A stretch of 64,000 nt of DNA, from IMG/VR virus record IMGVR_UViG_3300031963_012969; one strand, given 5' to 3'. Of this stretch, positions 13,380-48,010 are shown in pieces. The notes beneath the pieces were generated by a model. That model ran no database searches, had not been told where the DNA came from, and was given only the letters and a program-made list of their open reading frames with translations. The position numbers and the translations under genes were made by a program. Source of the DNA: a virus. Positions within the stretch are counted from its first letter, which is position 1. Each line of letters starts with the position of its first letter.

Positions 13380-14372
13380 TTAGAAGAATTTCGCTTTAGC
13401 CACACCAAATGGGTTACCGATAGAGGCACCAATCGAGGAGTAGATAAAGAACTCAACCATGAACGCACGACGATCAACAAACATAGTTGGTTGTTCGAGT
13501 TCGTAGAACTTGCCAAGGAATTGTGGCGCGGAGAAGTAATAAACTTCACCATCCTTAACGATGTCGTCCTTCATTGTGAAGAGGTGCTTATGGCCGAGAA
13601 GTGTAGTGGCCGAAAGACCGCCTTTGAACAACTCAGTCGAAAGATCACCGATATTGACGTGTTGGAACTTGAGGTACTCGCGTCCAGTATTAACATTCAT
13701 GACGATGAGGTCAGTGTTAAGACGGATAGGAGTTTGCTCAGCGCCGAGAACGCCACCACCAGGAGTAAAGCCTTTCGAGAGGATCTTTGTAGCCTCAACA
13801 AGAGATTCACGTGTCCAACCAGTGCTCACACCGAGTGGATTTCTGGAGGTATTCGTGAAGTCATAGTATTGAACCTTACCAGTAACAGGGCTGGCTGCGT
13901 TTCCAGTTGTTCCAACAATAGAATCAATTGTTTGGAAGAATGGAACGTCTTCAGCTGTCATGTGATCCTTAATCGCGTTTTCTTTGAACACGTTACGAAT
14001 ATCATAATCGTATTGCTCAAGTCTACGAACGTCTTGGAAGTAGCTTGGGCTAAGAATGCGAGCAAAGTCAACACGATATCTGTCGCCCTTCATGATACGA
14101 TTTTTAGGAAGTGTAGCAAAACCAACGCTCATCGAGAGTGGTTGCGAAACTTCTTTGTCAACGATCTTGACTGGCTCATCTGTATCGAGCTGCTTATCGA
14201 GCTCAGCGGCAGTGATTGTTTGAGGTGGGAGGATTTTACGAAGAAGACCCTCTTCACGGAGAGTTAAGCGTGTGAAGTCAGTTGCGACTTCAGCAGCCTT
14301 ATTGAGATCGTTCGAGGCGATCTTCTCCATGAATTTATCATTAATAAGTTTAGCTGGGATATTAGTATTCAT
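13380..14372 (-). CDS. Major capsid protein
   Basis: 330 aa; LREEGLLRKILPP motif; strong codon bias; GGAGG RBS; own terminator; follows protease, scaffold and decoration genes. Confidence 0.88.
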   Translation of the reverse strand: MNTNIPAKLINDKFMEKIASNDLNKAAEVATDFTRLTLREEGLLRKILPPQTITAAELDKQLDTDEPVKIVDKEVSQPLSMSVGFATLPKNRIMKGDRYRVDFARILSPSYFQDVRRLEQYDYDIRNVFKENAIKDHMTAEDVPFFQTIDSIVGTTGNAASPVTGKVQYYDFTNTSRNPLGVSTGWTRESLVEATKILSKGFTPGGGVLGAEQTPIRLNTDLIVMNVNTGREYLKFQHVNIGDLSTELFKGGLSATTLLGHKHLFTMKDDIVKDGEVYYFSAPQFLGKFYELEQPTMFVDRRAFMVEFFIYSSIGASIGNPFGVAKAKFF

Positions 14373-14389
14373 TTTAAATTATCCTCCAA

Positions 14390-14866
14390 TTATTTGGTTC
14401 TGTTTTCTCTTGGAACAAACGTAAGATACGTTTTTGTACCCAAGGAGTATGGTGCACGTGTAACAGTACCAATAACAACTTCAGTGCTGGCAGCAGCGCA
14501 AAGTTGACCATTTTTGGCGGTAAGCTCTGTTCCAACATTGAATGTGTCAGAGGTCTTATAATTGGTTGTTTCGATTTCGAGGGCATTGTTAAACCCAATT
14601 CCATGAATAGCGCCATATGGTAATTGACGGTAGCTGGATGGGCTGTGAGATCCACGATTTGTGGATGGGTCTGCGCTATCAACCATTATGATAAATGGAA
14701 GAGCGCTGATTGTTGTCGTAGCTGGTTTAGACCATTTGCCTGTTGAATCCACAACAGCGACATCACCCTGAGAGAGGGTAACACCTGTAGCGGCTGCAAG
14801 GCTTTTCTCTACGACGGAAGGATTTGGCCAACCCTTCACGATATTTACATTAACTTCGAGAGACAT
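14390..14866 (-). CDS. Capsid decoration/cement protein (putative)
   Basis: 158 aa, small-residue and beta-rich, directly upstream of the capsid gene. Confidence 0.6.
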   Translation of the reverse strand: MSLEVNVNIVKGWPNPSVVEKSLAAATGVTLSQGDVAVVDSTGKWSKPATTTISALPFIIMVDSADPSTNRGSHSPSSYRQLPYGAIHGIGFNNALEIETTNYKTSDTFNVGTELTAKNGQLCAAASTEVVIGTVTRAPYSLGTKTYLTFVPRENRTK

Positions 14867-14906
14867 TTTTTGTTTCCTTTTTTTAAGTTTTGCTCCTACT
14901 TCATGT

Positions 14907-14942
14907 TACTCATGTAACATCGTCTCGTGAGCCTGACGAGAT
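14907..14942 (-). promoter_or_regulatory. Tandem hairpins in the leader of the decoration/capsid genes
   Basis: ATGTTAC-ATGA-GTAACAT and TCTCGT-CAGGCTC-ACGAGA stems in an otherwise AT-rich spacer. Confidence 0.45.
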
Positions 14943-15012
14943 CAACTTAAACTCTTGAATAAATTGATTTTTAATATTTTGTTATATTAATTAAAAATAA
15001 TCAATACTTTTA

Positions 15013-15405
15013 TTATCCTTCCATCACTAATTTCTCAAATGGATCTAATTCCGAAAGAGACTGCAAGTTGCTTGGTTGCCCAAAGCTTTCGGCTTTAAGC
15101 TCAGAAGCAACTTTGTCTAACACGTTAAAGATTTCAGTTGGGTTATCAGCAATTGAAGAAACAAATGCTACTTTATTCGACTCCTCTAATATACCTCTTG
15201 TAACTAAAGTGTCGGCTATTTTATTTAATCCAGATCTAAAGCTTTCTTTCTCAGAAGAAGCAATTTTTTCGAGTTGTTCGGCTTTTTTTACTGCACTTTC
15301 ATAAAGCGGCTCGATTTGCTTGAGTTTTTCTTGATCCTTAAATGCTGGGATAGCTTGTTCAGCAAGCTTCGCAGCATTTTCGATTAATTCTTTAAAATTA
15401 TTCAT
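15013..15405 (-). CDS. Small scaffold-like head assembly protein
   Basis: Helical and acidic, with six K-x-A motifs; AAGGAG RBS. Confidence 0.55.
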   Translation of the reverse strand: MNNFKELIENAAKLAEQAIPAFKDQEKLKQIEPLYESAVKKAEQLEKIASSEKESFRSGLNKIADTLVTRGILEESNKVAFVSSIADNPTEIFNVLDKVASELKAESFGQPSNLQSLSELDPFEKLVMEG

Positions 15406-15426
15406 ATTTATTTAACTCCTTTTTAA

Positions 15427-17085
15427 TTAAGCAGCCTGTGGTGGAACTGGAGCTTGGGCCTCAGGTTCAGCTGGGGCGGATTGAGCTTCTTCGCCTCCAC
15501 CAGATAATCCTAACTCTTGTAACACCTGCATAGCTTCTTCTTCGCTAATTTGTCCAGATTGAAGAAGTGCTTCAAGAGCTTGAAGAATTTGCTGAACTTC
15601 AGGTGGAACATTAGCTATTTTTTGCTCTCTCTCTTGAGCCACCTTGCTCAAAATGGCGTTCTGAATATTTTCCTGTTCCATTGCCGACTTGATCAATTTA
15701 GCGTCTTCAATGGCTGCCTGATTAAGGTAATCAGTGATTTCAGAATCTGTTTTTCCAGCTTCTTTCAATTCAGCAACTTTATCGCAAACCATTTTATCAA
15801 TAGCTTGATTTAATTCATCTTGCTGTTGCGCTGTCTTAAAATATTCTTGTATTTCTTGAGTTGAATAACCAAGTTCAACAAGCGCAGCAAGTTTTCTATT
15901 TGCTTCATCAGCTGCTATATTTTGAGCTGTTTCTCCGTTAATAATTTGAGCGTCATTTTCAGCAGCTTGCTTAACAAGTTCTGTTATTTCTTCATCCGTT
16001 TTACCTTCGGAAACCCACTCAGCAACCTTGCTATTGATATTGGACTCAATCTCTTTGATCTCTTGTTCAGAAAAGATAGAAGCTGTCTTAGGTTCCTCTT
16101 CAGATTCCTCTTGTTCTGTAGCCTCCTCTTGTTCTGGAGCTTCTCCTTCTGGAGACTGACCGCCTTCAGTTGCGGCCTGAAGTTGCATCAAAACTTGTTG
16201 TGCTTGTTCCTCGGAGATTTGACCTTCTTGAACTAATTCCTGTAAGGCTTGCAAAATGAGCTCTATTTCAGATCCTTCTTCTCCAGCTTGTGGAGCAGCC
16301 TCTTCTGGGGCAGCAGCTGCAGCTTCTTCAGCCATTTTGTCTTCAAGTGTCTTAAACAAGAATTTTCCTAATTCATACCCAACAGAAACATTTCTGTAAT
16401 GTGTCGCAATTTTTTCGGCTAATGCGTCTTCATCTATTTCAATTGCACTAGGCTCTTTAACATCTTCACTCGCAACCTTAGATTCATCCTTTTTTCTGAG
16501 GGCTTCCAGGTCTTTAGAGTCAATCTTGTTATTAGAATTTACGTCAATTTTTTTTTGAGCTTCTGTCAATTTTTTTTCAGTAGCCTCTTTATCTTCTTTC
16601 TTGCCTTCTTCCTTTTCTTCTTCCTTGTCTTCTTCAGTAGAATCACCTTCATCTTCGGATGACTCTTCTTTTTTTTCCTCAATTACTTTTTTTAATTGCT
16701 CTGGCATTTCAGCTTGTTTCTCAAGCTCCTCTGTGGCGAGCTTGATATTGCCTAAAAGTTTGTTGACAAGATCAGCGGCAGATCCTTCTTCGGCTATTTT
16801 GCTAGAAGGTGAGCATTCTTTTCTGGAACGCTCTTCTGTAGATGGTTCTTTTGTTCCTGGAGCCTTCTCCGTAGCTTCGACACCCATGGTCAAACCCTTA
16901 TCTGAGTTCGAACCGGTTGCTTTTCCAGATCCTGGTAAAACCTGGTTAACCTCGGAATCGCTAGTGCCTTTAGATACGGACGTTTCATTATTTCCTTGCG
17001 ACTCTTCAGCTGTTTTAGATTCACCTATAAACCTGCGAAAGTCTTCAAGGACTGTATTAAATTTGGGAGCTTTTCTTTTACTCAT
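15427..17085 (-). CDS. Scaffold/prohead core protein
   Basis: 552 aa, E/K/Q/A-rich, internal repeats, ~16 K-x-A motifs, between protease and capsid genes. Confidence 0.7.
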   Translation of the reverse strand: MSKRKAPKFNTVLEDFRRFIGESKTAEESQGNNETSVSKGTSDSEVNQVLPGSGKATGSNSDKGLTMGVEATEKAPGTKEPSTEERSRKECSPSSKIAEEGSAADLVNKLLGNIKLATEELEKQAEMPEQLKKVIEEKKEESSEDEGDSTEEDKEEEKEEGKKEDKEATEKKLTEAQKKIDVNSNNKIDSKDLEALRKKDESKVASEDVKEPSAIEIDEDALAEKIATHYRNVSVGYELGKFLFKTLEDKMAEEAAAAAPEEAAPQAGEEGSEIELILQALQELVQEGQISEEQAQQVLMQLQAATEGGQSPEGEAPEQEEATEQEESEEEPKTASIFSEQEIKEIESNINSKVAEWVSEGKTDEEITELVKQAAENDAQIINGETAQNIAADEANRKLAALVELGYSTQEIQEYFKTAQQQDELNQAIDKMVCDKVAELKEAGKTDSEITDYLNQAAIEDAKLIKSAMEQENIQNAILSKVAQEREQKIANVPPEVQQILQALEALLQSGQISEEEAMQVLQELGLSGGGEEAQSAPAEPEAQAPVPPQAA

Positions 17086-17145
17086 AATTTTTATATTTTT
17101 TGATTTTATTTTGTATTTAGTTTTGTGTCCACTCTTTTTTGAAGG

Positions 17146-18474
17146 TTAATTCAACATGAAAGCATTGAATATTACATCATCATTAGCGGATATATCGTTT
17201 AAAGCAGCAACCTTGTAGGCTAGGTATTGTCTTACCATAGCACGAGACTCTGGCTTTATAGAAGTTTTTTTATCATTTAACTCCTCGTTGTAAAGAACTG
17301 CTTTTTTTATTTTTTCGTCCTGAACATCGGGAGACAAGATAAATTTGTTTATTTCGTTTTTTGTGTTTTGGGTAATGGAAGTATTCCCATTACAAGATGA
17401 ATCAAAATCATGAATAGATGCAATTTTTTCTAGATTAGAAGCCTCTTTCAACTCCAATCTTACACACTCACTTATCACATCCTCTGTTTCGTCTATTAAA
17501 TTTTTGAAATCATTAAATCTGGATCCAGAAGCAAGTTTATAAAAAACCCTAAACGGAAGTATAGATGCATTTTTAGATAAACAGCTAAACATATCTTTTG
17601 GGTTCTTTTTCTGTAGCTCCCTTATTGCAGACTCAGATAGATCTGTTTTATCTAAAACATTTTTAGGGGCATTAATGCCGACTGCATCAATATATTTTTG
17701 TATCTTAGATAGCTTTTCGGCTATAGCTAACTTCGGGGTAGATAGAATTCTGTTTTCTATTAATTCCGCTAATTCAGCCCCGCCCATTGGCTCACTTGTG
17801 TCAATACCAGCAATTTTAGCTAAATCCATAGCGATCATGTCTGCTCCGCGATCAACAAATGATATATCATTCCAATACCCATCTCTATTATATACAAAAC
17901 ATTTTCTTCCATCTGGCAATATCTTGTTTCTTCCAAATGGGTGAGGTGCCGCTTTTTTAACGTGAACACAGTATTCAGATGGCGCTTTACTTACATTTCC
18001 GCATATAGAACAAACATCATTATCACAATGCCACCCCATAGAAAACTTAACGTCTCCACCTCTTTCAACTCTACCAAGCCAATCAGCACACTTATCTATA
18101 TTAGCTGCAATAGCTAATTCTACTCTTCCCATTTTTTCGTTATAAGCAGATTTAATTACGTCTCCATCTCTCTGCTCATGTGGGACTTTACTATTATGAT
18201 GCCTGTATAATTTAGCTTTCTTCACGAAAGTTGGATGAGATTTTTTACAAACCTCCTCCTCAAAAGCATCAAAGTTTAAATTACTTCCAGTCTTCTCAAA
18301 TGACCCTAAAGCAATTAGATGAATTATAGCGTGATTTTTAATTGGCTCTATGTCTCCCCAGCTATGTCTAACAGACGAAGCTATCTTATCTCTCCTTTGT
18401 GGATCGTCAATTATTTGAACCAGATATTCTGCATCTGGATATTCGAATGAGTCGTTGAAAATTAATTTTCTCAT
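17146..18474 (-). CDS. Prohead maturation protease with zinc-finger insert
   Basis: N.N.DAF...LYRHHN (His), FSMGW (Ser), CSICGN...CVH, DISFV..GAD; position in head module. Confidence 0.8.
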   Translation of the reverse strand: MRKLIFNDSFEYPDAEYLVQIIDDPQRRDKIASSVRHSWGDIEPIKNHAIIHLIALGSFEKTGSNLNFDAFEEEVCKKSHPTFVKKAKLYRHHNSKVPHEQRDGDVIKSAYNEKMGRVELAIAANIDKCADWLGRVERGGDVKFSMGWHCDNDVCSICGNVSKAPSEYCVHVKKAAPHPFGRNKILPDGRKCFVYNRDGYWNDISFVDRGADMIAMDLAKIAGIDTSEPMGGAELAELIENRILSTPKLAIAEKLSKIQKYIDAVGINAPKNVLDKTDLSESAIRELQKKNPKDMFSCLSKNASILPFRVFYKLASGSRFNDFKNLIDETEDVISECVRLELKEASNLEKIASIHDFDSSCNGNTSITQNTKNEINKFILSPDVQDEKIKKAVLYNEELNDKKTSIKPESRAMVRQYLAYKVAALNDISANDDVIFNAFMLN

Positions 18475-19422
18475 TTATTGAAATGCTGGTTGGTCAAAAA
18501 ATTTATCCCCTAAATACAATTCATTTAAAGCCGGTAGTGCAGCGGCTCCAGCGATAGGAAGCAAACCCTTTCTTGATAGTGCACTCCGCAAAATCGAAAG
18601 AGTTGTTTTACTCAATGGACGTAAAATACTTGACTTTAGTCCACCCTTAAGTGCTTCACTAGCTGTAATTTTAACTCCACTAGCACGAGCCATTTCTTTG
18701 TACATTTTTTCCTTAATCGCTTTTGTATCTATTGAATTTATTAATTTATCTATTTTTTCTCCGCCAAAATACGGGTGAGCGCCAACGGCTTTAATAAATT
18801 CATCTCCCCCATCTTTCCTGACGTTTTCCGGTAGTGCCGCCAAATTGTTTTTTGTTAAATAATTGTTTAAAAATCCACCGCCTGCAGCTCCACCAGTTGC
18901 TAATATTGTAGTGGGATTTATTATATCCTTTGCTTTATCTTTTAGAGTTTTTTTTTGCTCGCCTCCCCCAGACACAAGGTTTTGTGTTACGCCGCCCAAG
19001 GTATTTAATATAGATGGAACAGATGCTCCAATAGCACCACCAGCAACCAATCCGCTAAGTGTTGAATTTCTTTTTCTTCTATTGAAATCTTCGTCTGTTT
19101 CGAATTCCCCCTTTGATGAAGAAAGATTTCCAAATAAACCACCCAATGCTGCTCCACCTAATCCACTCGCTATATTTGCACCACCTGGAGTGTCTTTGAT
19201 TTTATCTTTAGCGGAATTTAATCCACTCAATAAAATATTCTTTATTGAGTCTAGTTTGCCGGTTTGGGGGGATCCAGCCGAATTGTCGGCTCTTTTTTGT
19301 CTTAAGCAGGTTAAAGCAAATTCACCCATTTCGGAGTCAAATTTTTGCATAGCTAATCCAATTTCATCACTGGCTAGTTTTTCATGCACTTTTGTCAAAA
19401 CGTTTTCTAAGGTCATATACAT
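18475..19422 (-). CDS. Glycine-zipper protein with KLA leader
   Basis: EKLAS near the N-terminus; several GxxxG helices. Confidence 0.55.
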   Translation of the reverse strand: MYMTLENVLTKVHEKLASDEIGLAMQKFDSEMGEFALTCLRQKRADNSAGSPQTGKLDSIKNILLSGLNSAKDKIKDTPGGANIASGLGGAALGGLFGNLSSSKGEFETDEDFNRRKRNSTLSGLVAGGAIGASVPSILNTLGGVTQNLVSGGGEQKKTLKDKAKDIINPTTILATGGAAGGGFLNNYLTKNNLAALPENVRKDGGDEFIKAVGAHPYFGGEKIDKLINSIDTKAIKEKMYKEMARASGVKITASEALKGGLKSSILRPLSKTTLSILRSALSRKGLLPIAGAAALPALNELYLGDKFFDQPAFQ

Positions 19423-19438
19423 TTTGTAAAATTGTTAA

Positions 19439-19819
19439 TTAAATATTGGTTATAGATTCACTTGTATATGAATCTTGTTGAGATCTAAGCACAGACATTG
19501 CATTTTGTATTCTTGTAGTTATTGTCTCAGCTAAATAATTAGCTCTGGTCTGAGCATCAGAAAATGACCTTTTATCAAAAAAACACACAAAAGGCAAAAA
19601 CCCTCTTTTCACTTTTACAAATCTGTTTGGTAAAATCCAGTCAGCAGTTGGGCTAGGTGGCTGACCCTGTACAGTTTCCTCTCCATAAAGACCTCCAACA
19701 TTTATCTCGGGTTCACCAAATTTTTGAATTAGTTTATTGTCCTCCTCAGAAAAATCTTCATTTCTGATTTCTATAAAAAACTTTTGATCGGAAATATATT
19801 TTAATATTCTAGTCTTCAT
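19439..19819 (-). CDS. Hypothetical protein
   Basis: ORF in operon with ATGA overlap. Confidence 0.7.
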   Translation of the reverse strand: MKTRILKYISDQKFFIEIRNEDFSEEDNKLIQKFGEPEINVGGLYGEETVQGQPPSPTADWILPNRFVKVKRGFLPFVCFFDKRSFSDAQTRANYLAETITTRIQNAMSVLRSQQDSYTSESITNI

Positions 19820-21306
19820 TTTTGTGGAGTTTGACCTTGCCCAAGTTGTTTAGTTTTTAATAAATTGTTCTCTAATTCTACAAGTGAATTGGCAAAATGT
19901 GGATCAATTACTTGAGCTGTACCTTGTCTTAAGACAGACCTGGCTATATCCTTAATCATACTGGCATTAGGGGCTAACTGGATAAGTGCGTTGTAAGAGT
20001 TTTCTATTTCTGATGGATCTTGCTGAGATATAATATCGTCATTCATTAACTCCCTCAAGATAGCTTCTCTTTTTATGTTTTCTATCTCTTGTTTGTCTAT
20101 TTGGTATTTTTTAGGATTATCTATTCCCCTTAATTTTAAGGAGTACCCATTTGCCGCTGTATCAGCCATAGCAGAATCTGAGGACATTAGTTGAGATTTA
20201 AAGTTGTTAGACATTTGATCTAACACCATTTTGCCTGGACTAAATATTTGTGGATATTCTGTGGGTTTTTTCTTTGTTTCCTTTTTGTCGCTACTATGTT
20301 TAGTGCTATTATTAACTAAATCTGAAGCGCTTTTGTTTAACTTAACTTCATTTTTTTTTAAATCACCAAATATAATTTGGTCAAAGTCAGAAATCAAATC
20401 TTCTGGGAATTCGGCAAATTTTTGAGTTGCTGCAATATTCCCTCTGCCTGGACTCCACAAGTAATTAGATGCTGATGCCTCTTTATTTATCCCGCTTGCA
20501 TCGCAAATTAAGTTTCTCAATTCGGCTTCTTTTGCAGAACAATCTCTGACAAGACTATTAAATCCAGTCACACTGTTAGTGTACATGGACTCAGAATCAA
20601 CCAACCCAGAGAAACACCTTAAAAATTTATTGTCATCGTAATTTACATCACCGGATAAATTCTCAGATAAATCATCTATAGTTATTTTTGCAACCTTAGC
20701 TATCAAACCAAGTATTCTCCCAGCGGGTTTATTGTCTTGATACTCGTAAAAAATTTGAGCAGCATAATCGGCTACCTTCTCTCTCTCTTCGGTAAACTCA
20801 AGTATTTCTGAAGCTTCTTTCATGCCCTTGTAGAATGCCTCTCTGCTGTCTATGATTAAATCCCTCTTTTCACTTAAATCCCTGTTTTGTTCATTAATAG
20901 CAAAGAACGCTGTTTTGATTCTGGATTCTAGTGGGATGGACGAGGTGCTTGCAATATCAAACTCTTCTTCTGAAGCGGTCTTAGACACTTCTTCAGTAGC
21001 AAGAAAATCATTCAAGTCCTCTTTCATTTCTGAAACAACAGAATTAGGAGCAATTTGAGTTTCGTTGAAGACGCTATTTATTACTGTTTTTTTGTCTGCT
21101 ATGTCAAAGTCTGCTGACTTGTCTTTAGCTATTTTTACATAAGCTTTTGTCTTCGCAGTATTGAAAGCTTCAATTACCCTGCTAATAGTCTCTGGGTTAA
21201 GTTCATGCTCTCTAGCTACTTTTATAATACTATCATTAGCATTTATACCAGAATTATGGAGTTTAATAGCAGAGTTAAGTGCTTTTTCAATACGCTCGTA
21301 AATCAT
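19816..21306 (-). CDS. Helical K-x-A-rich putative head protein
   Basis: About a dozen K-x-A motifs (KVARE, KTASE, KEASE, KEASA, KSASD). Confidence 0.55.
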   Translation of the reverse strand: MIYERIEKALNSAIKLHNSGINANDSIIKVAREHELNPETISRVIEAFNTAKTKAYVKIAKDKSADFDIADKKTVINSVFNETQIAPNSVVSEMKEDLNDFLATEEVSKTASEEEFDIASTSSIPLESRIKTAFFAINEQNRDLSEKRDLIIDSREAFYKGMKEASEILEFTEEREKVADYAAQIFYEYQDNKPAGRILGLIAKVAKITIDDLSENLSGDVNYDDNKFLRCFSGLVDSESMYTNSVTGFNSLVRDCSAKEAELRNLICDASGINKEASASNYLWSPGRGNIAATQKFAEFPEDLISDFDQIIFGDLKKNEVKLNKSASDLVNNSTKHSSDKKETKKKPTEYPQIFSPGKMVLDQMSNNFKSQLMSSDSAMADTAANGYSLKLRGIDNPKKYQIDKQEIENIKREAILRELMNDDIISQQDPSEIENSYNALIQLAPNASMIKDIARSVLRQGTAQVIDPHFANSLVELENNLLKTKQLGQGQTPQK

Positions 21307-21330
21307 AAGTGTTTATTATATTAAGATAAA

Positions 21331-23276: not shown

Positions 23277-23281
23277 TTTTG

Positions 23282-24121
23282 TTACCTTGTTCTTTTATTT
23301 CTGTTTAAGAAATTTTGATAATCTTGAATGTATCTTTTGTCGGCGTATATTTGATTTGGAGTTACATTTGAATTCTCTTTGTATATTTGTCTAACTATGT
23401 CAGCCCTTCTTCTATCTGCAACAGATTTAGAATTGTAGCTTCCCATGACTTTAGACAAAAAGGCATCAGTTGGACCAGTAGATGTATTTACTCCAGCAGC
23501 AGATTGTTGATCTTTCCTGACTGGCTGCGCTCTTCTTACTTCAACCATTCCGTTTGTGGTATTCATTTTTGGGGACGTACCCACTGCTTTAGGTAAAAAG
23601 CCAGGTGCATCGTTTATAGCGGAATTTATATTTGCCTCGTTCTGAGTATTATATTGCTGTGTAGCATTTTCAACTAAAGAAGACCCTGAATTTCCTCCAA
23701 AAAATGAAACAGCGCCAGATGGAAGATTCTTATTTAAGCTACCCTTCATTGGAGACGCATCTGCAACCGGTAAATTATTTTTGAGGTAATTTCTTCTTTT
23801 TTCTAATCTTTTATTTTCGAGTCCCATTATAGCGCCTCTTGCAGCATCAGTGGGGCTTTCTTTACCGTACAGGTTGTACGCAAAATCTCTTGCTTTTCCA
23901 AGCATAGTATCCGTTCCAGTAAGTTGATCATAGAGTCCAACTCCACCAGCTCCAGTAACAGCTGCGCCGCCAATTCCAGCCATTAGCTTAGGGTTAGAGG
24001 AAATAGCCCCTCTTGCAGCGCTTATGGCCGGAGAAATAAATGGTTTAGCAGCACTAAATATAGATGCTGTTTTGGCTTCTTTAGTTAATGTATTTTTATA
24101 TGTTTCGGTATATTTATTCAT
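23282..24121 (-). CDS. MNKY-leader protein
   Basis: MNKYTETYKNTLTKEAKTAS leader followed by a Gly-rich helix. Confidence 0.6.
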   Translation of the reverse strand: MNKYTETYKNTLTKEAKTASIFSAAKPFISPAISAARGAISSNPKLMAGIGGAAVTGAGGVGLYDQLTGTDTMLGKARDFAYNLYGKESPTDAARGAIMGLENKRLEKRRNYLKNNLPVADASPMKGSLNKNLPSGAVSFFGGNSGSSLVENATQQYNTQNEANINSAINDAPGFLPKAVGTSPKMNTTNGMVEVRRAQPVRKDQQSAAGVNTSTGPTDAFLSKVMGSYNSKSVADRRRADIVRQIYKENSNVTPNQIYADKRYIQDYQNFLNRNKRTR

Positions 24122-24123
24122 AG

Positions 24124-24462
24124 CTAATTTAATGATGCAGTGGTTAAACCACTTAATTCTTGTAATCTATCTCTTAGCAATCTTGCATAATCAGACTGAA
24201 GGGATCTAGTAAAAACTGTATCTTTTTTAACGCCGTCTTCTAGTATCATGTCCTTTAGACTATTTGCGGTTCCGGTAATCTTATCTATTGGCTTAGTCAG
24301 GTCAATCATTTTTCCATGTGTTCTAGAGAAAATAGATTTAGGAGTATTTTTTACGGCATTATATGCGGTTCCAATAAGTTTAAGTGCCATATCACCTCTA
24401 CCAGCCGTTTTATTAAGCTCTATGTCAAGCCTACTCAAATATGTATGTGTATCTTTGTTCAT
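24124..24462 (-). CDS. MNK-leader protein
   Basis: MNKDTHTYLSRLDIELNKTAG leader. Confidence 0.6.
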   Translation of the reverse strand: MNKDTHTYLSRLDIELNKTAGRGDMALKLIGTAYNAVKNTPKSIFSRTHGKMIDLTKPIDKITGTANSLKDMILEDGVKKDTVFTRSLQSDYARLLRDRLQELSGLTTASLN

Positions 24463-25022
24463 CTATATTTAATGCTTCTTATGTTTATGTCACTCCATAA
24501 ATTATTTTGAGTTTCGTCTTGATTTTGTGGCTGATCTCCAAATGCCGAATCAATACCTGTATCAATAGCGTTATTGATAGCCAATCCAGGTGTTGCAACA
24601 CCAAATACGGTTCCAATATCTTTAGCAGATATATTCTTGATTCCTCCCCTTTCCTTCGCTATTGCAGTGGCTGTGTTCCATGGCTGAGTAAATGTATTAC
24701 TCATTATCGACATTGCCTTATTTTTAATTGGCTGATTTGATTCTAATATGCCCCTATACCCTCTTGCCATTGATCCAATGCCTCCTGTAATTCCGCTACT
24801 TAGATTGCCAACGCTTTTTATTGTTTTTTGCGTTAATGGCTTTGCTGCACTAACGCCTTTTTGAATTGCGCTAGAAACTATTGGCTTGGCTGTATTTAAT
24901 AAATTTTTTACACCAGCGGAAACAATTGGTTTTGCTGCAGAAAATGCGGCCCTGGCGGCTGGCACCACAAATGCATTTTTTTGATTTAATTCATTAAAAT
25001 AGATTTTTGAGTATTTATTCAT
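24459..25022 (-). CDS. MNKY-leader protein with AKP repeats
   Basis: Start moved to MNKYSKIYFNELNQKNAF; three (A)AKPIV-like amphipathic repeats. Confidence 0.6.
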   Translation of the reverse strand: MNKYSKIYFNELNQKNAFVVPAARAAFSAAKPIVSAGVKNLLNTAKPIVSSAIQKGVSAAKPLTQKTIKSVGNLSSGITGGIGSMARGYRGILESNQPIKNKAMSIMSNTFTQPWNTATAIAKERGGIKNISAKDIGTVFGVATPGLAINNAIDTGIDSAFGDQPQNQDETQNNLWSDINIRSIKYR

Positions 25023-25023
25023 A

Positions 25024-32399: not shown

Positions 32400-32858
32400 T
32401 TATTGTGCTGGTTGTACCTCAGTATTTGCTTGAGCCTGTTGATCGGCTGAAGCAGATTGCTGCTCTTGTTGAGCTGCTGCTTGCTGTGGATCTGCACCAG
32501 TTATTTGTGCCATCATTTGCTCTATTTGGTCAAGTCTTTCTTGAACACTTTTTTTCTTTTCCCCCTTACCACCCATTTTCATTGCCTGTAATTCCATACC
32601 AATTTGTTGAACAATTTGCATTGTTTGCTGCTGCATTTGTGCTAACTGCTCTAGCCCTCCCTGTATTAATTGTGCAAGCTCTGGAAATCCTATCTGAGGC
32701 TGACCATCAGTTCCTGGAGCTGGTGGAGGTGGCTGAGGAATTGATCCTTCTTGTTGAGCCTGTGCTATTGCTTGTTGTGTTTGGGGAGAGGACACAAAAG
32801 CTTTTTTATCTATCTTGTTTAATATTTCGTTTAATAACTCTGTATTAAAATTTAACAT
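32400..32858 (-). CDS. Gln-rich protein with KKA leader
   Basis: MLNFNTELLNEILNKIDKKAFV leader; Q/P-rich. Confidence 0.6.
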   Translation of the reverse strand: MLNFNTELLNEILNKIDKKAFVSSPQTQQAIAQAQQEGSIPQPPPPAPGTDGQPQIGFPELAQLIQGGLEQLAQMQQQTMQIVQQIGMELQAMKMGGKGEKKKSVQERLDQIEQMMAQITGADPQQAAAQQEQQSASADQQAQANTEVQPAQ

Positions 32859-34114: not shown

Positions 34115-34121
34115 TTTTATA

Positions 34122-37100
34122 TTATGCACTAATTTCAACTGGTGTGTCGATTGATATTTCTCCCCTTCTGTATGCAGATATTACTTCTGATGCGTCTTTG
34201 AATTTTACTGAAGGTTTATTTTTGTCTATATTCGTTGTGTTGTAAAGTCCTAAAACAAATTCCTGAGATGGGGTATAAAATATCTTATTATCTTTTATTG
34301 ATAGTAAGTTTTTCGACGGCATTAATTTTTTATTAGCCTCTTGTATGGCGTCATCGGATACAGGTACATGTACATTCATTTGATCTCCATCAAAATCTAA
34401 GTTAAATCCTTTGACTATTAATGGGCTAACCTGAATAGAATCTCCTGTAACGAGTCTTGGGGTAGCGGCCATAATATTGAATCTATGTAGAGCTGGTGCT
34501 CTATTGTATAGAACTGGCCTTTCGGACATTTCATCAAGCAAGAATTTTTTAGCATAATCGCTTTTTCTTTCGACGTTTAATGCTGCTTGAGTAGATGGCA
34601 TCCCATTCTTAACCATTCTTCTCATCACAAATGGAGCATATAATTTCCATGCCATTTTTTCTGGAATACCTATGCTGTCCATATCTAGGTCGTCACTAGG
34701 AATTGTCACACCTCTACCGACTGTATTTACGGTGTGCCCAATTACCTTAGATAAAAACATTCCAGTCTTTGGGCCACCAGATCCTGCTAGTGATTTTATA
34801 AAACCTTTTACACCTTTTTGCTGTAATTTTGGGTGAAGTGGATCTCCAAGCCCCATCACAGCAGTTAATGCGTCATATACAGAAAGTTTTTCATCTCCAG
34901 CCTCTGATTCTCCAAACGCATCTTTAGATTCTCTATGAAGATCTCTAGCTGTCATTAAGTCTTTATATAAATAATTTGCATCAGCACTTAACATCATTTT
35001 ACCAGCCATCGATACAGGTCTATAGCTTGGGGGCAACACAGGAACTTTTTTCATAAAAAAGTCATCTTTATCTAATCCCTGTTTTCTTATTCCAGATAAA
35101 ATATTTAATTTTTTTACTGCATCATTCCTAGATGTTTTTGATCCATTTCTTATTGCGGATCTCAAGTCTTCTTCCATTCTATTGAAGTCTATAGATTGGT
35201 ATGCATTAACTAATGCCTCGGGTCCAGTTCTTCCATCAATCATTTCTTTTCCAGATAGAACGTCCCTCATTTTGTTCTCAGTGAGCCCAAGTAATTTTCT
35301 TAGTGGTTCTTCTAATATTGGATTTGGAATTGGCTCGTCCAATGATATGAAGCTCCAGTTTTTACCGTCTATGCCGTGCAACGATTGATCCATTAGACCA
35401 CCTTTTACGGGCTCCCCAGTTCTAGGGTTTATTGTTTCAGCATTGCTAAGTTCTCTGTTTTCAACTAATGAATCTATGTCCGCTTTTTTTAAAGCTTTTA
35501 TTGTTATATTTGCTCCCCTTTTGTCTGGATTGATTCCAGCCGCTTTTAGTGTGTTGGTGAATTTTTCATAGATAAAGGGGGTTTTTGGTGCTGGTAATGA
35601 CATGCCCATTTTTATAGATCTCCACATATCCACGTTTGCACCCGTCCTATAATTCTGAATATCGAATAAATTTTTAACAGCACCATGAGAAAGTAATGCC
35701 ATTGTATCTAACATACCTATTCTTTTTGCACTTTCTGATCCACCTGGTTTACCTGGTTGTTCGTTTAGGTCTGGATTACCCTCATCTATCGCGCTAAGCT
35801 TTGCGTCTGCTGTATGCTCTAGCTTTAGAAAATTTTGTATACCAGTGAGAACTTTTGGTATTACTTTATTTGTTTCTGGGTCCAGTAAGTCTTCTGTATC
35901 TGATACCTGATTAAGCTCTAATTCATTTTTTACGAAGTCGTGAAACGAGTCAGAAGAAAAGGATGGAAGTGTATATCTTTTTCCAGTCTTTGTGGCGACT
36001 TTTCCTAACAAAGCTTCATATACCATGCCTGGGTTAACTCTTCCAATCATGGCAGCTGGATTGATCAATATATCCACTGTGTTTCCGTCTTTATCCTTAA
36101 ACATCTTATCATCAGGAATTATTCGACCAATAACCCCCTTAGCAGCAAATCTAGATGATATTTTATCCCCAGGCTTTGCTGGAAAATTTGCTGATATGTT
36201 TACAGACAAACCTCTTCTTGTTTCTATGGCATCTATAACGTTACCATTTACGTTTTTTTCCCATGTTTGGCTTTTATCTATAAAAGATTTTTTGAGAATT
36301 TTATGTAGATTTCCCTTAGCTCTGTCTTCTGCCCTTAGAATCCTAGGAGCAACAGATAAAAATACTGGATCACCAGGATTTATTTCTGCGCCTGGTTTAA
36401 TCATTCCATTGTCGTCTATCTTGTTTAGCTGTTCCTTTGTGTATTTATTTGGGAACAATTGTATAAATTTATTTTTATTGGAAACTACTCCGTCCTTATT
36501 CTCTACATCAAATCCATATAAATGCGATGACGTAAGTTTAGATGCAGCGCCTTCACTAATTGTAATAGAGTCCTCAAACGTACCGCCCTGTTTTCCTGGC
36601 ATAAAAGCTACCCTAAGATTCTTGCCTATAGATAGTTCTCCATCTTTATTTACATAATTTGAATGAGCTAATGCTTGTCCGGTTTTAACTTGATCGCCTG
36701 GCTTAACTAATGGAGTATCTGTAGTAAATGTCTTTCTGTTGTGTGGATAAAAATATCTTAACTCCATGTCCACATCTTTTTTGTCTAACCCAGTTATTGT
36801 TATTCTATCGTTTGTTATTTTTTTAACTACCCCGTCAGTTGGGGACGCGACAACCCCTATTTTAGACCCTATGGTCTTTTCTAGTGGTTGTTCATTGTCT
36901 TCGTCTAATGACATTACAAGAGGTGGCTCTGGTTGTGCCATCGGCAAAGCTTGAGTAAAATACTTGCCAGCCATAAATGCTCTAGCCCCCTTCATTGTAC
37001 TAAACATTGGGGCTAGATTAATAGAGTCTGTATACACGTGCGAAGGGGACAATATTTTGTATTCCACTTCGTCTGGGGTAGCATAAGTTAACTTACCCTT

Positions 37101-37214
37101 TTTCATTGCTGGAACCGGGTAAGACGATTTTGATCCGTTAGGATCTATTACTTGTGGTAACGCATTCTTCTGGACAAAGTCTGGAAAAAGCTCTGAAAAC
37201 AAATCTTTTTTCAT
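34122..37214 (-). CDS. DNA-directed RNA polymerase, fused beta C-terminal + beta' N-terminal (catalytic) subunit
   Basis: beta motifs GKNLRVAFMP, FEDSI, GDKISSRFAAKGV, LKLEH; beta' motifs ETINPRT, PVLPPSYRP, NRAPALHR, FNLDFDGDQM. Confidence 0.95.
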   Translation of the reverse strand: MKKDLFSELFPDFVQKNALPQVIDPNGSKSSYPVPAMKKGKLTYATPDEVEYKILSPSHVYTDSINLAPMFSTMKGARAFMAGKYFTQALPMAQPEPPLVMSLDEDNEQPLEKTIGSKIGVVASPTDGVVKKITNDRITITGLDKKDVDMELRYFYPHNRKTFTTDTPLVKPGDQVKTGQALAHSNYVNKDGELSIGKNLRVAFMPGKQGGTFEDSITISEGAASKLTSSHLYGFDVENKDGVVSNKNKFIQLFPNKYTKEQLNKIDDNGMIKPGAEINPGDPVFLSVAPRILRAEDRAKGNLHKILKKSFIDKSQTWEKNVNGNVIDAIETRRGLSVNISANFPAKPGDKISSRFAAKGVIGRIIPDDKMFKDKDGNTVDILINPAAMIGRVNPGMVYEALLGKVATKTGKRYTLPSFSSDSFHDFVKNELELNQVSDTEDLLDPETNKVIPKVLTGIQNFLKLEHTADAKLSAIDEGNPDLNEQPGKPGGSESAKRIGMLDTMALLSHGAVKNLFDIQNYRTGANVDMWRSIKMGMSLPAPKTPFIYEKFTNTLKAAGINPDKRGANITIKALKKADIDSLVENRELSNAETINPRTGEPVKGGLMDQSLHGIDGKNWSFISLDEPIPNPILEEPLRKLLGLTENKMRDVLSGKEMIDGRTGPEALVNAYQSIDFNRMEEDLRSAIRNGSKTSRNDAVKKLNILSGIRKQGLDKDDFFMKKVPVLPPSYRPVSMAGKMMLSADANYLYKDLMTARDLHRESKDAFGESEAGDEKLSVYDALTAVMGLGDPLHPKLQQKGVKGFIKSLAGSGGPKTGMFLSKVIGHTVNTVGRGVTIPSDDLDMDSIGIPEKMAWKLYAPFVMRRMVKNGMPSTQAALNVERKSDYAKKFLLDEMSERPVLYNRAPALHRFNIMAATPRLVTGDSIQVSPLIVKGFNLDFDGDQMNVHVPVSDDAIQEANKKLMPSKNLLSIKDNKIFYTPSQEFVLGLYNTTNIDKNKPSVKFKDASEVISAYRRGEISIDTPVEISA

Positions 37215-37828: not shown

Positions 37829-38827
37829 TTAAGTTATATTTGCTGTGTTTATTGAATTATTGGAAACATTCTTAAATGCATCTGGATTCCTAATTATAGC
37901 GTCTATTATTGTTTTTTTAGGAACTTTGTTTCTTAGAGAATTTAAGTATGGATCTGGATTTTGCTGAGCTTTTCTTGCTACAGTTCTCGCAAGGAACCCA
38001 GGAACGCCTGGTATTTTCCAGTCGTGTTTTATAGCGTTATTAAAGAATTGGTCAACGTTTAAATTTTTAGACAAAATTCTTTTGTATAATCCCTCTGGTG
38101 TTTCATTTGGAATACTGGTCTGAAGTTGCGGCAATTGAGCGTTAGACTTTTTCTGGAACGGTTGTCCAACTGGCTGAAATTGATTTGCCTGTTGAGGCAT
38201 TTGTTTCATGGGAACAGACACATTAGATGGAATACCTGGTCCAGTGGATGTAGCGCTAGATGTATAAGTTGGTGTATAATTTTGATTTATCTGTCCAGGA
38301 TTACGCGCAGCCTCGTCCATGGAGTTTTGAACATTAAGTTTACCTAGCTCGCCTAACATTTGTCCTGTACCTGCTATAGTTTTAATAGGGTTAGCAAATC
38401 CATGCCAAGCTCTACCCATGACACCTTTATCTGCAACCTGTTGAGTTTCTGCTAAATTTTTTGCGGGATCCATTGCGACATCTACCCCTTGCAACGCCAT
38501 ATTTCCGGCCCATGCCCATGGTGCCGCTTTAGAAGCAAATCCCAATGCTTTCCCAGCCACTCCAGCTGCGTTAGATGATTGAGCCATCGCTCCAATTGCG
38601 TTATTCATTCTAGGAGCAACCTTTGACAAGTGATGACGTCCTTCGTGCAACAAACTGCTGGCTCCTGTACCGCCTTCGGCAATACTAACTGCTTGATGTA
38701 GTCCATGCCCGTGTCCAGTGTTTGCTACGGCAAGACCGTCACTTACAGCAGAAATTGGCTGACTAATTAATCTTGGAATGCTGCCAAATCCAGCCTTTTT
38801 ACTTAACAAAGATAATATTTTTTTCAT
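37829..38827 (-). CDS. Gly/Ala-rich protein with KKA leader
   Basis: MKKILSLLSKKAGFG leader; amphipathic Gly/Ala helices; Q/P linker. Confidence 0.55.
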   Translation of the reverse strand: MKKILSLLSKKAGFGSIPRLISQPISAVSDGLAVANTGHGHGLHQAVSIAEGGTGASSLLHEGRHHLSKVAPRMNNAIGAMAQSSNAAGVAGKALGFASKAAPWAWAGNMALQGVDVAMDPAKNLAETQQVADKGVMGRAWHGFANPIKTIAGTGQMLGELGKLNVQNSMDEAARNPGQINQNYTPTYTSSATSTGPGIPSNVSVPMKQMPQQANQFQPVGQPFQKKSNAQLPQLQTSIPNETPEGLYKRILSKNLNVDQFFNNAIKHDWKIPGVPGFLARTVARKAQQNPDPYLNSLRNKVPKKTIIDAIIRNPDAFKNVSNNSINTANIT

Positions 38828-39733: not shown

Positions 39734-39790
39734 TAAACAGATTAAATTAACACATTTAATGTATATATACAAATAAGATATCTGTCATCT

Positions 39791-44910: not shown

Positions 44911-44956
44911 AATTTAAAGTACATTTTATATTTAAACTTTATTCATTTCAATAAAG

Positions 44957-45451: not shown

Positions 45452-45453
45452 AC

Positions 45454-45837
45454 TTAAATTAATCCACTAGTGTCTAGTTCTTCTTTGTGTGTATTCAAGT
45501 TTTTTTCGTCTCTAAAATTTTGTATCATTTTTTTGTAAGCTTCGACCTTAGCCTTTGTAGCTTTGATGTCTTGAGTCTCCGTACCCTTTACGGCTTTTTC
45601 CATTTTATCTCTGATCATTGCAGTACCAACCCCAGTTAAAGCACCTGCACCAGTTAAGAACACTGCATACTGTTTAGCTAAATCAACTGGATCAAGTGCC
45701 ACTTTGGATAGCATTTCATTTGCCTCTTTTGGAGTAAAACCTTTTTCGCTTAATATTTTGCAGAAACCTAATTTAATTGATCTGTAGCATTGAGCCTTGT
45801 TATCTTCTTCTATAATTTGTTTAGCAATTTTATTCAT
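45454..45837 (-). CDS. Glycine-zipper protein with KVA site
   Basis: Start moved to MNKIAK; SKVA followed by GAGALTGVG helix. Confidence 0.55.
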   Translation of the reverse strand: MNKIAKQIIEEDNKAQCYRSIKLGFCKILSEKGFTPKEANEMLSKVALDPVDLAKQYAVFLTGAGALTGVGTAMIRDKMEKAVKGTETQDIKATKAKVEAYKKMIQNFRDEKNLNTHKEELDTSGLI

Positions 45838-45841
45838 ATAT

Positions 45842-47314
45842 TTAATAAGTATAGTAACCTTTTGAGTTAAATTGTGGACCACCCTTTCTACCCCCAAATG
45901 TGCTTCCTATCGCGCCACCAATCGCACTAGACACAATAGCGCCCATTCCTCCAAATCCCATAACCTTTGACATTATGTATCCAGCAAGCATACCCAAGCC
46001 CATATTCTGCAAAGAACCAACGGAGGCCCTCCCACCAGAAGATTGCATAGCTCTTCTAGCTTGCTGTATTAATATGTTCCTATCTCCCTGGGTTAGGCTA
46101 GGGTCTGCACCTAGAATACTTTGAAGCGCTATCAAATCAACAACTTGATTACCTGTGCCAAAAGCAAGTTTGTTTCTTTCTTGGCTTTTCTGGATTGCGT
46201 ACTCTTGTTTTATAGCTTTTTGTCTGGTTGGGTGCCTACCTAAAACTTTTTTATTATCTTTTGTGTACAGTATGTACTCTCCGTCTTCCTTTTTTATTAC
46301 AGCAATTTTTTCATCCAAGCACTGTTGAGCTTTTTTTGCTCTGTTCAGCAGTTCAAGATAGTTTGGATCTTTAAACATTTTTTCTTGAAACACCATTGGT
46401 TTATTGACGTCCATGTTATCAGACATCAATTTTTTGTTCATCTTAGTCATTATAGGGCTATTTGGGGAACCAAGTAGCTGGAATAATGCTGAACCACCGC
46501 CTCCTATCGCTGCGCCAGTTAGTAAATCTCTAATCATGGATGGAGATTCTTTTCCAAGAGCTTTCTGTCCCAAATTCTTTAGACCCATGGCTGCAGCGCC
46601 TATCCCGGCTGCTACCGGCAATGAACCTATTCCACCAGTAAGTGGATAAGTAAGAGTATCTACACTAGGTAATTTAAACTTAGTAGTTTTTATCTTATCC
46701 CAAATAGACGTATCTATATTGTTAGTTAAACCAGTATTTTGATTAACGTTTTTTATTTCCTTTATTACTCTATTTAAGTCGTAAGATGCTGATTTTTTTT
46801 GTTTTATTGATTTAGATATATTTTTCTCTAGAATAGCGTTAACAAATGTCTTAATATTAGCTTCAGGATGTTTACGAGGGTGCACAGTCCAACTATCCCC
46901 ATTTTCGGAAGACTTTGAAAGTTCAAAAGTCATATTGTTCTTTCCAGTTTGGAAAGTTCCTACAACTTTTGAGGGAGAAGACTTGTGTATCTGAGCCCGT
47001 CCCTTAAATGAGTTTCCACCGACACCAAAGTCACCGGATTCTGTATCTGGCAATCTTGTTGCTGATATTGATCCACCTAATTTCTCGGGCTCTGCTAAGC
47101 GGAAATTAACTGCCCTATTGTTGACTAAGAAAGACAATAACCTATTGCCACTGCCATCTTCAGTAATTGAGAAATCCCACATCTTGGATTTATCATGAGA
47201 TGGAATACCGCTATACACACTCCTAGAACTTTCTCCAGGGGATAACATAAAAGAACCTAACTCCACTGGAGACAGTAGAGACTTTATTTCTTTATCGTCT
47301 ATCAACTGAGCCAT
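45842..47314 (-). CDS. Modular polyprotein with glycine zippers and a small basic module
   Basis: Segments bounded by KSA, KIA and KLA; C-terminal GMLAG...GGAIG zipper. Confidence 0.55.
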   Translation of the reverse strand: MAQLIDDKEIKSLLSPVELGSFMLSPGESSRSVYSGIPSHDKSKMWDFSITEDGSGNRLLSFLVNNRAVNFRLAEPEKLGGSISATRLPDTESGDFGVGGNSFKGRAQIHKSSPSKVVGTFQTGKNNMTFELSKSSENGDSWTVHPRKHPEANIKTFVNAILEKNISKSIKQKKSASYDLNRVIKEIKNVNQNTGLTNNIDTSIWDKIKTTKFKLPSVDTLTYPLTGGIGSLPVAAGIGAAAMGLKNLGQKALGKESPSMIRDLLTGAAIGGGGSALFQLLGSPNSPIMTKMNKKLMSDNMDVNKPMVFQEKMFKDPNYLELLNRAKKAQQCLDEKIAVIKKEDGEYILYTKDNKKVLGRHPTRQKAIKQEYAIQKSQERNKLAFGTGNQVVDLIALQSILGADPSLTQGDRNILIQQARRAMQSSGGRASVGSLQNMGLGMLAGYIMSKVMGFGGMGAIVSSAIGGAIGSTFGGRKGGPQFNSKGYYTY

Positions 47315-47323
47315 ATAAATACT

Positions 47324-48010
47324 CTATTGCTGTCTATTTACTGGTGTACTTTTGAATGTGTCTGCAATTTGCTTTCTTAAGGAATCAAGTGCGGCTCTGC
47401 CCGAATTTGTTATAGAATCTTTATTTTCCGATACATATCTACCTAATAAAGCTCCACCTGCTGCACCGAGCCCAGACGCAATGGGTCCCCCGCCAAATGC
47501 TTTGGGCGCAAAAGCTCCTACCAATCCACCAGCCAACATCGGAGCAACATTGGTTAAAAATTCTGGGCTCTTTAAATAAGACCACGCTTTATCTCCGTAC
47601 TGCTTAGCTCCACCCAATACTTGCTGTATCTTTTCGTTGGCTATATCATTCATGGAAGATCTCATTTTGGGTTCAACAAATGGTCTCCAGAGTGGCGAAG
47701 TTTTGTCAATCACTCCCTGAACCAGTCTGTCTTTAGCTTTACCGATGCTGTCCATTACTCCTTCTTGTGCATCTTTTTTGGGCATCACATAATTTTCTGA
47801 AAGCCACTCTGCACCTTTATCACAAAATGACTCTATTATTCCAAGTGCCATATCACACGAGACATTTGCCTCTTTATGTAGATAATCTACAAAACCCCTA
47901 CAGAGTTGCACTTGAGAATCATTTGACTCAAAATTTAAATCTGTTTTGGCTAGTTTTCCTAACTTTAAAAAAACTTTATCTGTAAATTCTGGAGTAATAC
48001 TAAAAGTCAT
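47324..48010 (-). CDS. Glycine-zipper protein
   Basis: LAGGLVGA...GLGAAGGALLG hairpin; KLA and KEA motifs. Confidence 0.55.
   Translation of the reverse strand: MTFSITPEFTDKVFLKLGKLAKTDLNFESNDSQVQLCRGFVDYLHKEANVSCDMALGIIESFCDKGAEWLSENYVMPKKDAQEGVMDSIGKAKDRLVQGVIDKTSPLWRPFVEPKMRSSMNDIANEKIQQVLGGAKQYGDKAWSYLKSPEFLTNVAPMLAGGLVGAFAPKAFGGGPIASGLGAAGGALLGRYVSENKDSITNSGRAALDSLRKQIADTFKSTPVNRQQ

Follow-up and report, generated by a model that had tools for sequence, protein, structure and literature searches.

The window analysed here is the whole 64,000-nucleotide stretch of IMG/VR virus record IMGVR_UViG_3300031963_012969, and our subject is a short protein motif, Lys-x-Ala (K-x-A), that is concentrated in proteins encoded around its prohead protease gene. 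The window belongs to an uncultured freshwater phage that is large and very divergent. Nearly all of its genes lie on the minus strand, its guanine-plus-cytosine content is ~0.37, and a megablast comparison of 20 kb of the window with deposited phage records returned no match. The proteins in question are all encoded on the minus strand. They are a major capsid protein of 330 amino acids (aa; 13380..14372) with a weak match to the PHROG major head protein (E 8.5e-5), a 130-aa candidate small core protein (15013..15405), an acidic, low-complexity, scaffold-like protein of 552 aa (15427..17085), a prohead protease of 442 aa (17146..18474), a 315-aa protein that bears a short N-terminal leader (18475..19422), a 496-aa candidate core or internal protein (19816..21306) and a conserved 735-aa head-module protein (25024..27231). 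The gene order protease, scaffold-like protein, 130-aa protein, 158-aa protein and capsid protein is shared by the window, 55 related loci, Salmonella phage Arash and Bacillus phage G. An earlier reading of the window's sequence (the original prediction) had proposed that K-x-A is the recognition code of the prohead protease, used by this lineage in place of cleavage after Glu, and that it marks a head-cargo block of ~30 kb (13380-48010).

All the K-x-A instances listed in the original prediction were found in the sequence, as were the leader endings EKLA, SKKA, RKEA, GKNA, DKKA and QKNA. They include DKIAS (residues 29-33), AKIAG (219-223) and EKIAS (349-353) in the protease and EKIAS (residues 16-20) in the capsid protein. 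Counts of K-x-A in each protein were then compared with those in 2000 composition-preserving shuffles of that protein. The protease contains 14 copies against 3.5 in shuffled sequences (z 6.2), the 552-aa protein 18 against 6.2 (z 5.3), the 496-aa protein 13 against 4.0 (z 5.0) and the 130-aa protein 6 against 1.4 (z 4.4), and a moderate excess was found in the 735-aa protein (8 against 2.7, z 3.4). When the first four, which are encoded next to one another, were pooled, 51 copies were counted against 14.9 expected (3.4-fold, P 2e-13), and K-x-A ranked first of 1600 gapped dipeptides (gaps 0-3). In order to avoid choosing proteins by their motif content, the scan was rerun on all 14 proteins of 13380-27231, where K-x-A again ranked first of the 1600 patterns (69 against 31.4, Bonferroni 8e-6). 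Outside the block, K-x-A was not among the top gapped-dipeptide patterns. Enrichment of head proteins far above tail and metabolic proteins, as the original prediction had expected, was seen in the window and also in Arash.

Orthologues were collected from the 55 related IMG/VR loci (contigs up to 235 kb), and observed-to-expected ratios (O/E) of K-x-A were calculated for orthologues of <60% identity. The ratio was 3.5 for the 130-aa family, 3.0 for the protease, 2.98 for the 496-aa family (32 orthologues), 2.6 for the 735-aa family (32 orthologues) and 2.45 for the scaffold, compared with 1.1 for the whole capsid protein, ~1 for tail-side genes and 0.9 for minus-strand open reading frames (ORFs). 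K-x-A was mildly depleted in the beta-prime piece of the RNA polymerase (O/E 0.66 for orthologues of <60% identity, 0.65 across 32 orthologues). K-x-A was the top pattern of 1600 in every enriched family, followed by L-x-K, EK and K-x-x-S, and the control patterns A-x-K, K-x-x-A, KA, R-x-A, K-x-S and K-x-G were not enriched in the same families. When the same scan was applied to gp67, gp68, gp21 and gp22 of phage T4, I-x-E and L-x-E were the top two patterns and K-x-A was not enriched; I/L-x-E is the established motif of the T4 prohead protease gp21 (PMC12991175). Within the head module of Arash (gp220-226), gp220 has 10 copies of K-x-A against 3.0, gp223 8 against 3.0 and gp225 7 against 1.8. 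The tail and baseplate genes of Arash show no excess, and its 57 early-strand ORFs have 32 copies against 36.8, with an N-terminal site in 4 of the 57. Phage G gave a weak K-x-A signal only, and its capsid protein is without the site.

The protease was modelled with AlphaFold2 (AF2) from an alignment of 47 homologues, at a predicted local distance difference test (pLDDT) score of 83.7. The model consists of a catalytic domain (residues 1-211), a disordered linker (residues 212-226, pLDDT <50) and a helical C-terminal domain. The top match of the model in VIA-align was T4 gp21 (5jbl_A; Z 11.5, root-mean-square deviation 2.8 Å over 142 of 165 residues, model residues 1-209), followed by the proteases of varicella-zoster virus (VZV; 1vzv, Z 5.8), human cytomegalovirus (HCMV; 8j3s, Z 4.5) and Kaposi's sarcoma-associated herpesvirus (KSHV; Z 2.3), and the top three Foldseek matches were all 5jbl (probability 0.99-1.00). 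As modelled, the catalytic domain has the fold shared by T4 gp21 and herpesvirus assemblin. At the sequence level, PHROG 18299 ('head maturation protease') gave a weak match (E 7e-4, 19.9 bits), a Pfam scan to E 0.1 detected no protease family and no S77 match, and a sequence search of the PDB with the protease found no relative. Residues H52, H93 and S145 (within FSMG), which are candidates for the catalytic His and Ser, are invariant among the 47 protease sequences, as are C155, C158 and C169.

D153, C155, C158 and C169 are invariant within a segment C-x-D-x-C-S-I-C-G-N ... Y-C-x-H (residues 153-172). This Cys cluster looks like a zinc-binding insertion that T4 gp21 lacks. Among the best protease representatives at 50% clustering, 43 of 132 are ~750-1300 aa long (most 800-890). 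Eight long forms were inspected, and in several the insertion immediately follows the invariant FSMGxxC or falls at a conserved Cys farther along; the long forms include L052:9377-11977, L043, L048, L053, P0121-P0130 and others. The L052 copy matches Hint_2 and LAGLIDADG_3, and the insertions in the Cys cluster are therefore inteins.

Two of the protease sites are of particular interest. The KIA at residues 220-222 (17809..17817, minus strand) lies in the disordered linker and is a candidate release site; in this column, 87% of 99 aligned homologues have K-x-A, with the consensus KVAS. This is the one case that bears out the original prediction's statement that the motif sits at module borders. 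The conserved N-terminal site, KIA at residues 30-32 (18379..18387, minus strand), falls in a column (residue 29/30) with K-x-A in 93% of homologues, usually with a hydrophobic residue at P5 or P4. In all, five columns of the 99-homologue alignment, including these two, have K-x-A in >60% of sequences. Homologues carry 13 copies each, of which 3.4 fall in conserved columns and 6.8 in columns that are <20% conserved, against a chance expectation of ~3.5 in total. Since most of the copies occupy non-conserved columns, their density is kept by turnover, not by inheritance.

The protease family is very large and comprises 4660 clusters at 50% identity (E up to 1e-3). Nearly all of 120 word-indexed homologues were enriched for K-x-A, down to 26% identity, and a further set of 50%-cluster representatives had an O/E >1.5 in 132 of 132 cases (median 3.5), compared with 0.76 for A-x-K. 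Across >250 homologues, down to ~25% identity, K-x-A remained the top pattern. A search for a protease subgroup with another motif found none, and even homologues with few copies of K-x-A keep an N-terminal L-V-K-x-A-S/A.

The capsid protein has one conserved site, followed by a sequence that is depleted in K-x-A. Capsid homologues in the related loci were assigned by BLAST (~30% identity) and share N-terminal sequence with Arash gp226, the annotated major capsid protein of that phage. Of 37 orthologues (23-95% identity), 36 have K-x-A ~8 residues before the conserved capsid core. The capsid protein of the window has two N-terminal sites, KIA at residues 17-19 and KAA at residues 25-27 (14292..14324, minus strand), which mark the predicted end of a 19-27-residue propeptide. 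The original prediction had pointed to EKIAS, which is present, while the conserved site is the KAA, which adjoins the conserved core. Arash has ...GLV-KEA↓G in its capsid protein gp226 and ...GLT-KQA↓A in the protease homologue gp222 (the arrow marks the predicted bond here and below). From residue 51 to the end of the capsid protein, 33 orthologues contain 7 copies of K-x-A against 35.4 expected, a five-fold depletion, and the O/E of A-x-K is 1.07. Such depletion is the outcome expected from selection against cutting of the mature shell.

The densely studded proteins, if cut at every K-x-A, would be reduced to small pieces. The scaffold-like 552-aa protein, encoded between the protease and capsid genes, is 23% Asp plus Glu and matches no Pfam or PHROG family; its largest predicted fragment is 83 residues, compared with 30 for the 130-aa protein and 55 for the first 327 residues of the 496-aa protein. 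All 13 copies in the 496-aa protein lie within those 327 residues, so that a C-terminal part of 169 aa would survive. In the 496-aa family, K-x-A near residues 29-36 is conserved. The ESM Atlas model of the 496-aa protein has a pLDDT of 0.44, and ESM Atlas was unusable for both the 496-aa and the 735-aa proteins.

Conserved copies of the 735-aa protein occur in 33 related loci, and its gene has the position expected for a portal gene. Members of its family have leaders of 5-40 residues, variable in length and all ending in K-x-A just before the conserved domain. The window copy and four other orthologues are leaderless and start where the leaders of their relatives end. Identity as the portal was considered and rejected: neither PHROG nor Pfam gave a match, the orthologue profile had no match in the PDB, an AF2 model (pLDDT 65.6) matched neither a portal nor another fold, and the portal of Arash is annotated elsewhere, as gp204.

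Leaders ending in K-x-A are also found on proteins beyond this core. Within residues 2-33 of 58 non-core proteins of the window, 24 copies were counted against 8.5 in within-segment shuffles (p<5e-4), and residues 34-65, 66-97 and 98-129 of the same proteins were at chance. Leader-type sites, with the Lys at position 5-40, occur on 18 of 36 proteins in the block against 4 of 26 outside (Fisher 0.007). In the relatives, residues 2-33 hold 312 copies against 111 expected (z 22), and the positions of the Lys peak at 11-40. Together with the patterns L-x-K, EK and K-x-x-S, the leader logo of the relatives gives (L/F/M)-(E/V)-K-x-A-(S/A/G)-(D/A), with Leu, Phe or Met at P5 in 54%, an acidic preference at P4, Ser at P1' in 21% (Ser, Ala or Gly in 51%) and Asp or Ala at P2'. 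A flank score, based on a profile of flanking residues learned only from distant relatives, averaged -0.27 for core sites of the window and -1.14 for leader sites, compared with -3.6 for other K-x-A and -2.9 for the null.

The claim of a cargo block of ~30 kb was upheld only in part. Dense sites are present in four to five proteins and half of the block's proteins have leaders, but past residue 40, with the four dense proteins excluded, K-x-A within 13380-48010 is at chance (48 against 47.2). The block also holds a 2OG-Fe oxygenase (28342-28932), an SbcD-like exonuclease (30864-32168) and a leaderless C-terminal piece of the RNA polymerase beta-prime subunit (42418-43863; Rpb1_4/5). Given a remainder at chance and unrelated enzymes inside, the term '30-kb head-cargo block' is overstated. 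Rather than the entire 30-kb block, K-x-A marks four to five proteins in which it is dense and, in about half of the proteins encoded there, the N-terminus.

Several leader-bearing proteins stand out as candidate cargo. The 315-aa protein has the leader EKLA↓S (residues 14-18), with K-x-A kept in 4 orthologues of 35-64% identity and a flank score of 4.5 against a null of -2.9. Three small Gly/Ala-rich proteins of 279, 112 and 195 aa (23282..25046, minus strand) have MNKY-type leaders that end in KEA-KTA↓S, KTA↓G and KNA↓F. A 332-aa protein (37829..38827, minus strand) has the leader LLS-KKA↓G (residues 7-13; flank score 1.5). Leaders observed in this single genome are ID-KKA↓F on a 152-aa protein (32400-32858, minus strand), FG-KNA↓S on a 215-aa protein (33491-34138, minus strand) and KLG-KLA↓K (residues 16-22) on a 228-aa protein that is the last of the block (47324..48010, minus strand); the 205-aa protein encoded between the first two (32870-33487) has no leader. 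Six small Gly/Ala-rich proteins of the window, three at 11184-12608 and three at 23282-25046, start with MNK(Y/D)-x3-Y. K-x-A follows the MNK leader only in the 23282-25046 trio, and the shared leader and the motif are therefore separable.

The multisubunit RNA polymerase is encoded in three pieces: the N-terminal part of beta (28997-30853; Rpb2_2), a 1030-aa fusion of the beta C-terminus and the beta-prime N-terminus (34122..37214, minus strand; Pfam Rpb2_6, Rpb1_1 to Rpb1_3) and the beta-prime C-terminal piece mentioned above. Among these, only the fusion has a K-x-A leader, ...FVQ-KNA↓L (residues 13-19), for which the homologue in locus L048 has MFG-KRA↓S. The fusion is a candidate packaged (virion) subunit. 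RNA polymerase subunits are abundant in virion preparations of Arash, although these preparations list 116 proteins and look impure (PMC10585845).

The proteins and sites described above resemble those of known prohead proteases in different respects. The likeness to T4 gp21 lies in the catalytic fold, in the gene order protease, scaffold, capsid protein, in a three-residue P3-x-P1 motif that is dense in the protease, scaffold and small core proteins, in a single N-terminal site of the capsid protein, and in short leaders that end in the motif on other proteins (in T4, internal proteins and Alt). Unlike in T4, the predicted P1 is Ala and P3 Lys, as opposed to P1 Glu and P3 Ile or Leu. No sequence similarity is detectable, and the protease of the window, which also has a C-terminal helical domain and a cluster of invariant Cys residues, has twice the length of gp21. 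The predicted capsid propeptide has ~20-27 residues, whereas that of T4 gp23 has 65. Herpesvirus assemblin (VZV, HCMV, KSHV) cuts at (V/L/I)-x-A↓S at its release and maturation sites, and the release site lies between the protease domain and the scaffold-like domain. The phage enzyme has a related fold, P1 Ala and often Ser at P1' for the bond presumed cut, and its K220 site likewise lies between the protease domain and a scaffold-like C-terminal domain. It differs in that P3 is Lys and not hydrophobic, a hydrophobic preference being found at P5 instead, in having dozens of sites compared with two, and in a P1' that is relaxed to Ser, Ala, Gly or Glu. The HK97 gp4 family (clan SH) shares the fold superfamily and has the role predicted here, removal of an N-terminal part of the capsid protein. 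Unlike HK97, for which we know of no established short consensus motif, the phage of the window has a separate scaffold protein and a sharply defined motif. The proteases phiKZ gp175 and SPN3US gp245 recognize (S/A/G)-x-E↓, remove head-protein propeptides that have repeated copies of the motif, and cleave themselves (PMC10052503). Those phages are also large and encode a multisubunit RNA polymerase, which is packaged in the head there. They cut after Glu, however, and here Glu is not the predicted P1; the capsid protein is ~330 aa compared with ~750 aa, and no close sequence relation exists. Searches of open-access papers turned up no prohead motif of the K-x-A or Lys-x-Ala form.

Taken together, we consider it likely that (L/F/M)-(E/V)-K-x-A↓(S/A/G) is the cleavage and propeptide code of the phage's own prohead protease (17146-18474). 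The bond cut is most likely the one after Ala (P3 Lys, P1 Ala). Lys-x-Ala specificity in place of Glu, as put forward in the original prediction, is favored by the enrichment and specificity of the motif, its conservation, the positions of the sites, including that in the capsid protein, and the gp21 fold of the protease; it is from these that we infer cleavage, the bond and the packaging of leader-bearing proteins. Cleavage is also favored by the classes of protein that bear sites, which are the same as the substrates in T4: the protease itself, the scaffold, small core proteins and one N-terminal site of the capsid protein. Under this hypothesis, the protease would join the prohead during assembly through its helical C-terminal domain, free itself at the linker site K220 and the N-terminal site K30, and then destroy itself as its own helical domain is chopped. 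Peptides of ~5-80 residues, able to exit the shell, would be all that is left of the 552-aa scaffold, the 130-aa protein and residues 1-327 of the 496-aa protein, and the capsid protein would lose its propeptide of 19-27 residues. Further proteins, among them possibly a subunit of the RNA polymerase, are probably packaged in the head and would have leaders of 10-40 residues trimmed off.

K-x-A could instead serve in docking or capsid targeting and be bound without being cut, tethering core proteins and cargo to the protease, the scaffold or the inside of the shell. What the statistics reveal is a selected short linear motif and not a scissile bond, and the hydrophobic P5 and acidic P4 preferences could serve binding equally well. 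We regard docking as improbable, nevertheless, on the strength of the leaderless 735-aa orthologues, whose starts coincide with the leader ends of their relatives, as would be expected from cleavage but not from docking. The five-fold depletion of the motif in the mature capsid protein, its presence in the disordered linker after the protease domain, the turnover of dense sites within the protease and the T4 control, which ties the same signature to a cleavage motif, argue in the same direction.

It is likewise unlikely that a different enzyme, be it from the host or a second protease of the phage, cuts the sites, or that the cut falls elsewhere in the motif, for example right after Lys. The link between enzyme and substrate rests on co-occurrence and analogy, and the capsid protein of HK97 is cut after a Lys. 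Against another enzyme, the motif tracks the protease family across Salmonella, Vibrio and uncultured freshwater and marine bacterial hosts, the protease bears the densest load of sites, as self-processing would predict, and no second protease was found in the window. Against another bond, the small P1' residue and the Asp or Ala at P2' fit recognition across an Ala-Ser bond, and the leader spacing of two 735-aa family members (L013 versus L012) fits a cut after Ala. That the excess is a functionless by-product of composition, of Lys/Ala/Glu-rich helices, of internal repeats or of shared ancestry is very improbable, for although the scaffold is rich in Lys, Ala and Glu and internally duplicated and the relatives are not independent samples, composition was controlled by global and within-segment shuffles, A-x-K, K-x-x-A and KA show no excess, the majority of protease sites occupy non-conserved columns, as expected from turnover and not inheritance, and the motif is placed at leader ends, depleted in the mature capsid protein and absent from tail, early and minus-strand ORFs.

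Several observations weigh against a protease code as proposed here. Within the protease, conserved K-x-A also occurs at residue 108 (in a strand) and residue 128 (in a helix), both well-folded elements, and conserved copies in folded parts may be structural rather than cut. The 552-aa protein is internally duplicated, with two K-V-A-E...G-K-T-D-x-E-I-T segments and two I-L-Q-A-L...G-Q-I-S-E-E segments, and part of its K-x-A count is therefore duplicated as well. P-values across relatives are inflated by shared ancestry. As for the leaders, about eight hits are expected by chance, an unbiased N-terminal scan of the window alone reaches only Bonferroni 0.16, start codons were assigned by the longest ORF, and leader-type K-x-A is found on unlikely cargo, namely the SbcD-like exonuclease and small hydrophobic proteins at 39977 and 40745. 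The virion proteome of Arash, finally, lists coverage values that reach 100% for proteins whose processing is predicted here (PMC10585845). As a check on processing, this proteome neither supports nor refutes cleavage, as 100% coverage was reached from two peptides and the 116 'virion' proteins include enzymes of nucleotide metabolism.

Other genes of the window include an annotated tail sheath gene (6486-9242) and an annotated deoxycytidine monophosphate deaminase gene (12608-13108). The C-terminal DUF6321 domain (E 8e-20) of a 310-aa protein at 38840-39772 has matches to a dozen PHROG families without a described function. A giant protein of >1895 aa, encoded at 58148-64000 and running off the window, contains an FGE-sulfatase-like region (residues 896-1069) and Laminin_G_3 (residues 1146-1282); a role as fibre or receptor-binding protein is possible.

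To our knowledge, the specificity of prohead proteases has been determined experimentally for few phage groups, all of which cut after Glu (T4, phiKZ and SPN3US), and for herpesviruses. A prohead protease with a short motif, its self-destruction, the degradation of scaffold, propeptides and targeting leaders are known features (PMC10052503). New, as predicted from sequence, would be a specificity for P3 Lys and P1 Ala, unlike the Glu-P1 rule of the characterised gp21-type phage enzymes. We tentatively hypothesize, at somewhat less than even confidence, that a very large and mostly uncultured clade of 100-235-kb phages, including Arash, has switched its gp21-fold protease from Glu at P1 to Lys at P3 and Ala at P1, and uses leaders that end in the motif as a head tag for proteins that are loaded and then trimmed. 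If this is true, the sequence by itself would be enough to tell which proteins are packaged, with RNA polymerase subunits that are injected with the DNA possibly among them, and the shell protein would owe its survival to removal of the motif. Arash, as a cultured member of the clade, makes the rule directly testable. The rule would define what defence systems that sense phage protease activity must mimic, one such sensor being the activation loops of the cyclic-oligonucleotide-based antiphage signalling system (CBASS; PMC12991175). It would also predict the mature ends of capsid, scaffold and internal proteins in uncultured large phages, point to candidate injected proteins, and aid model building in maps from cryogenic electron microscopy.

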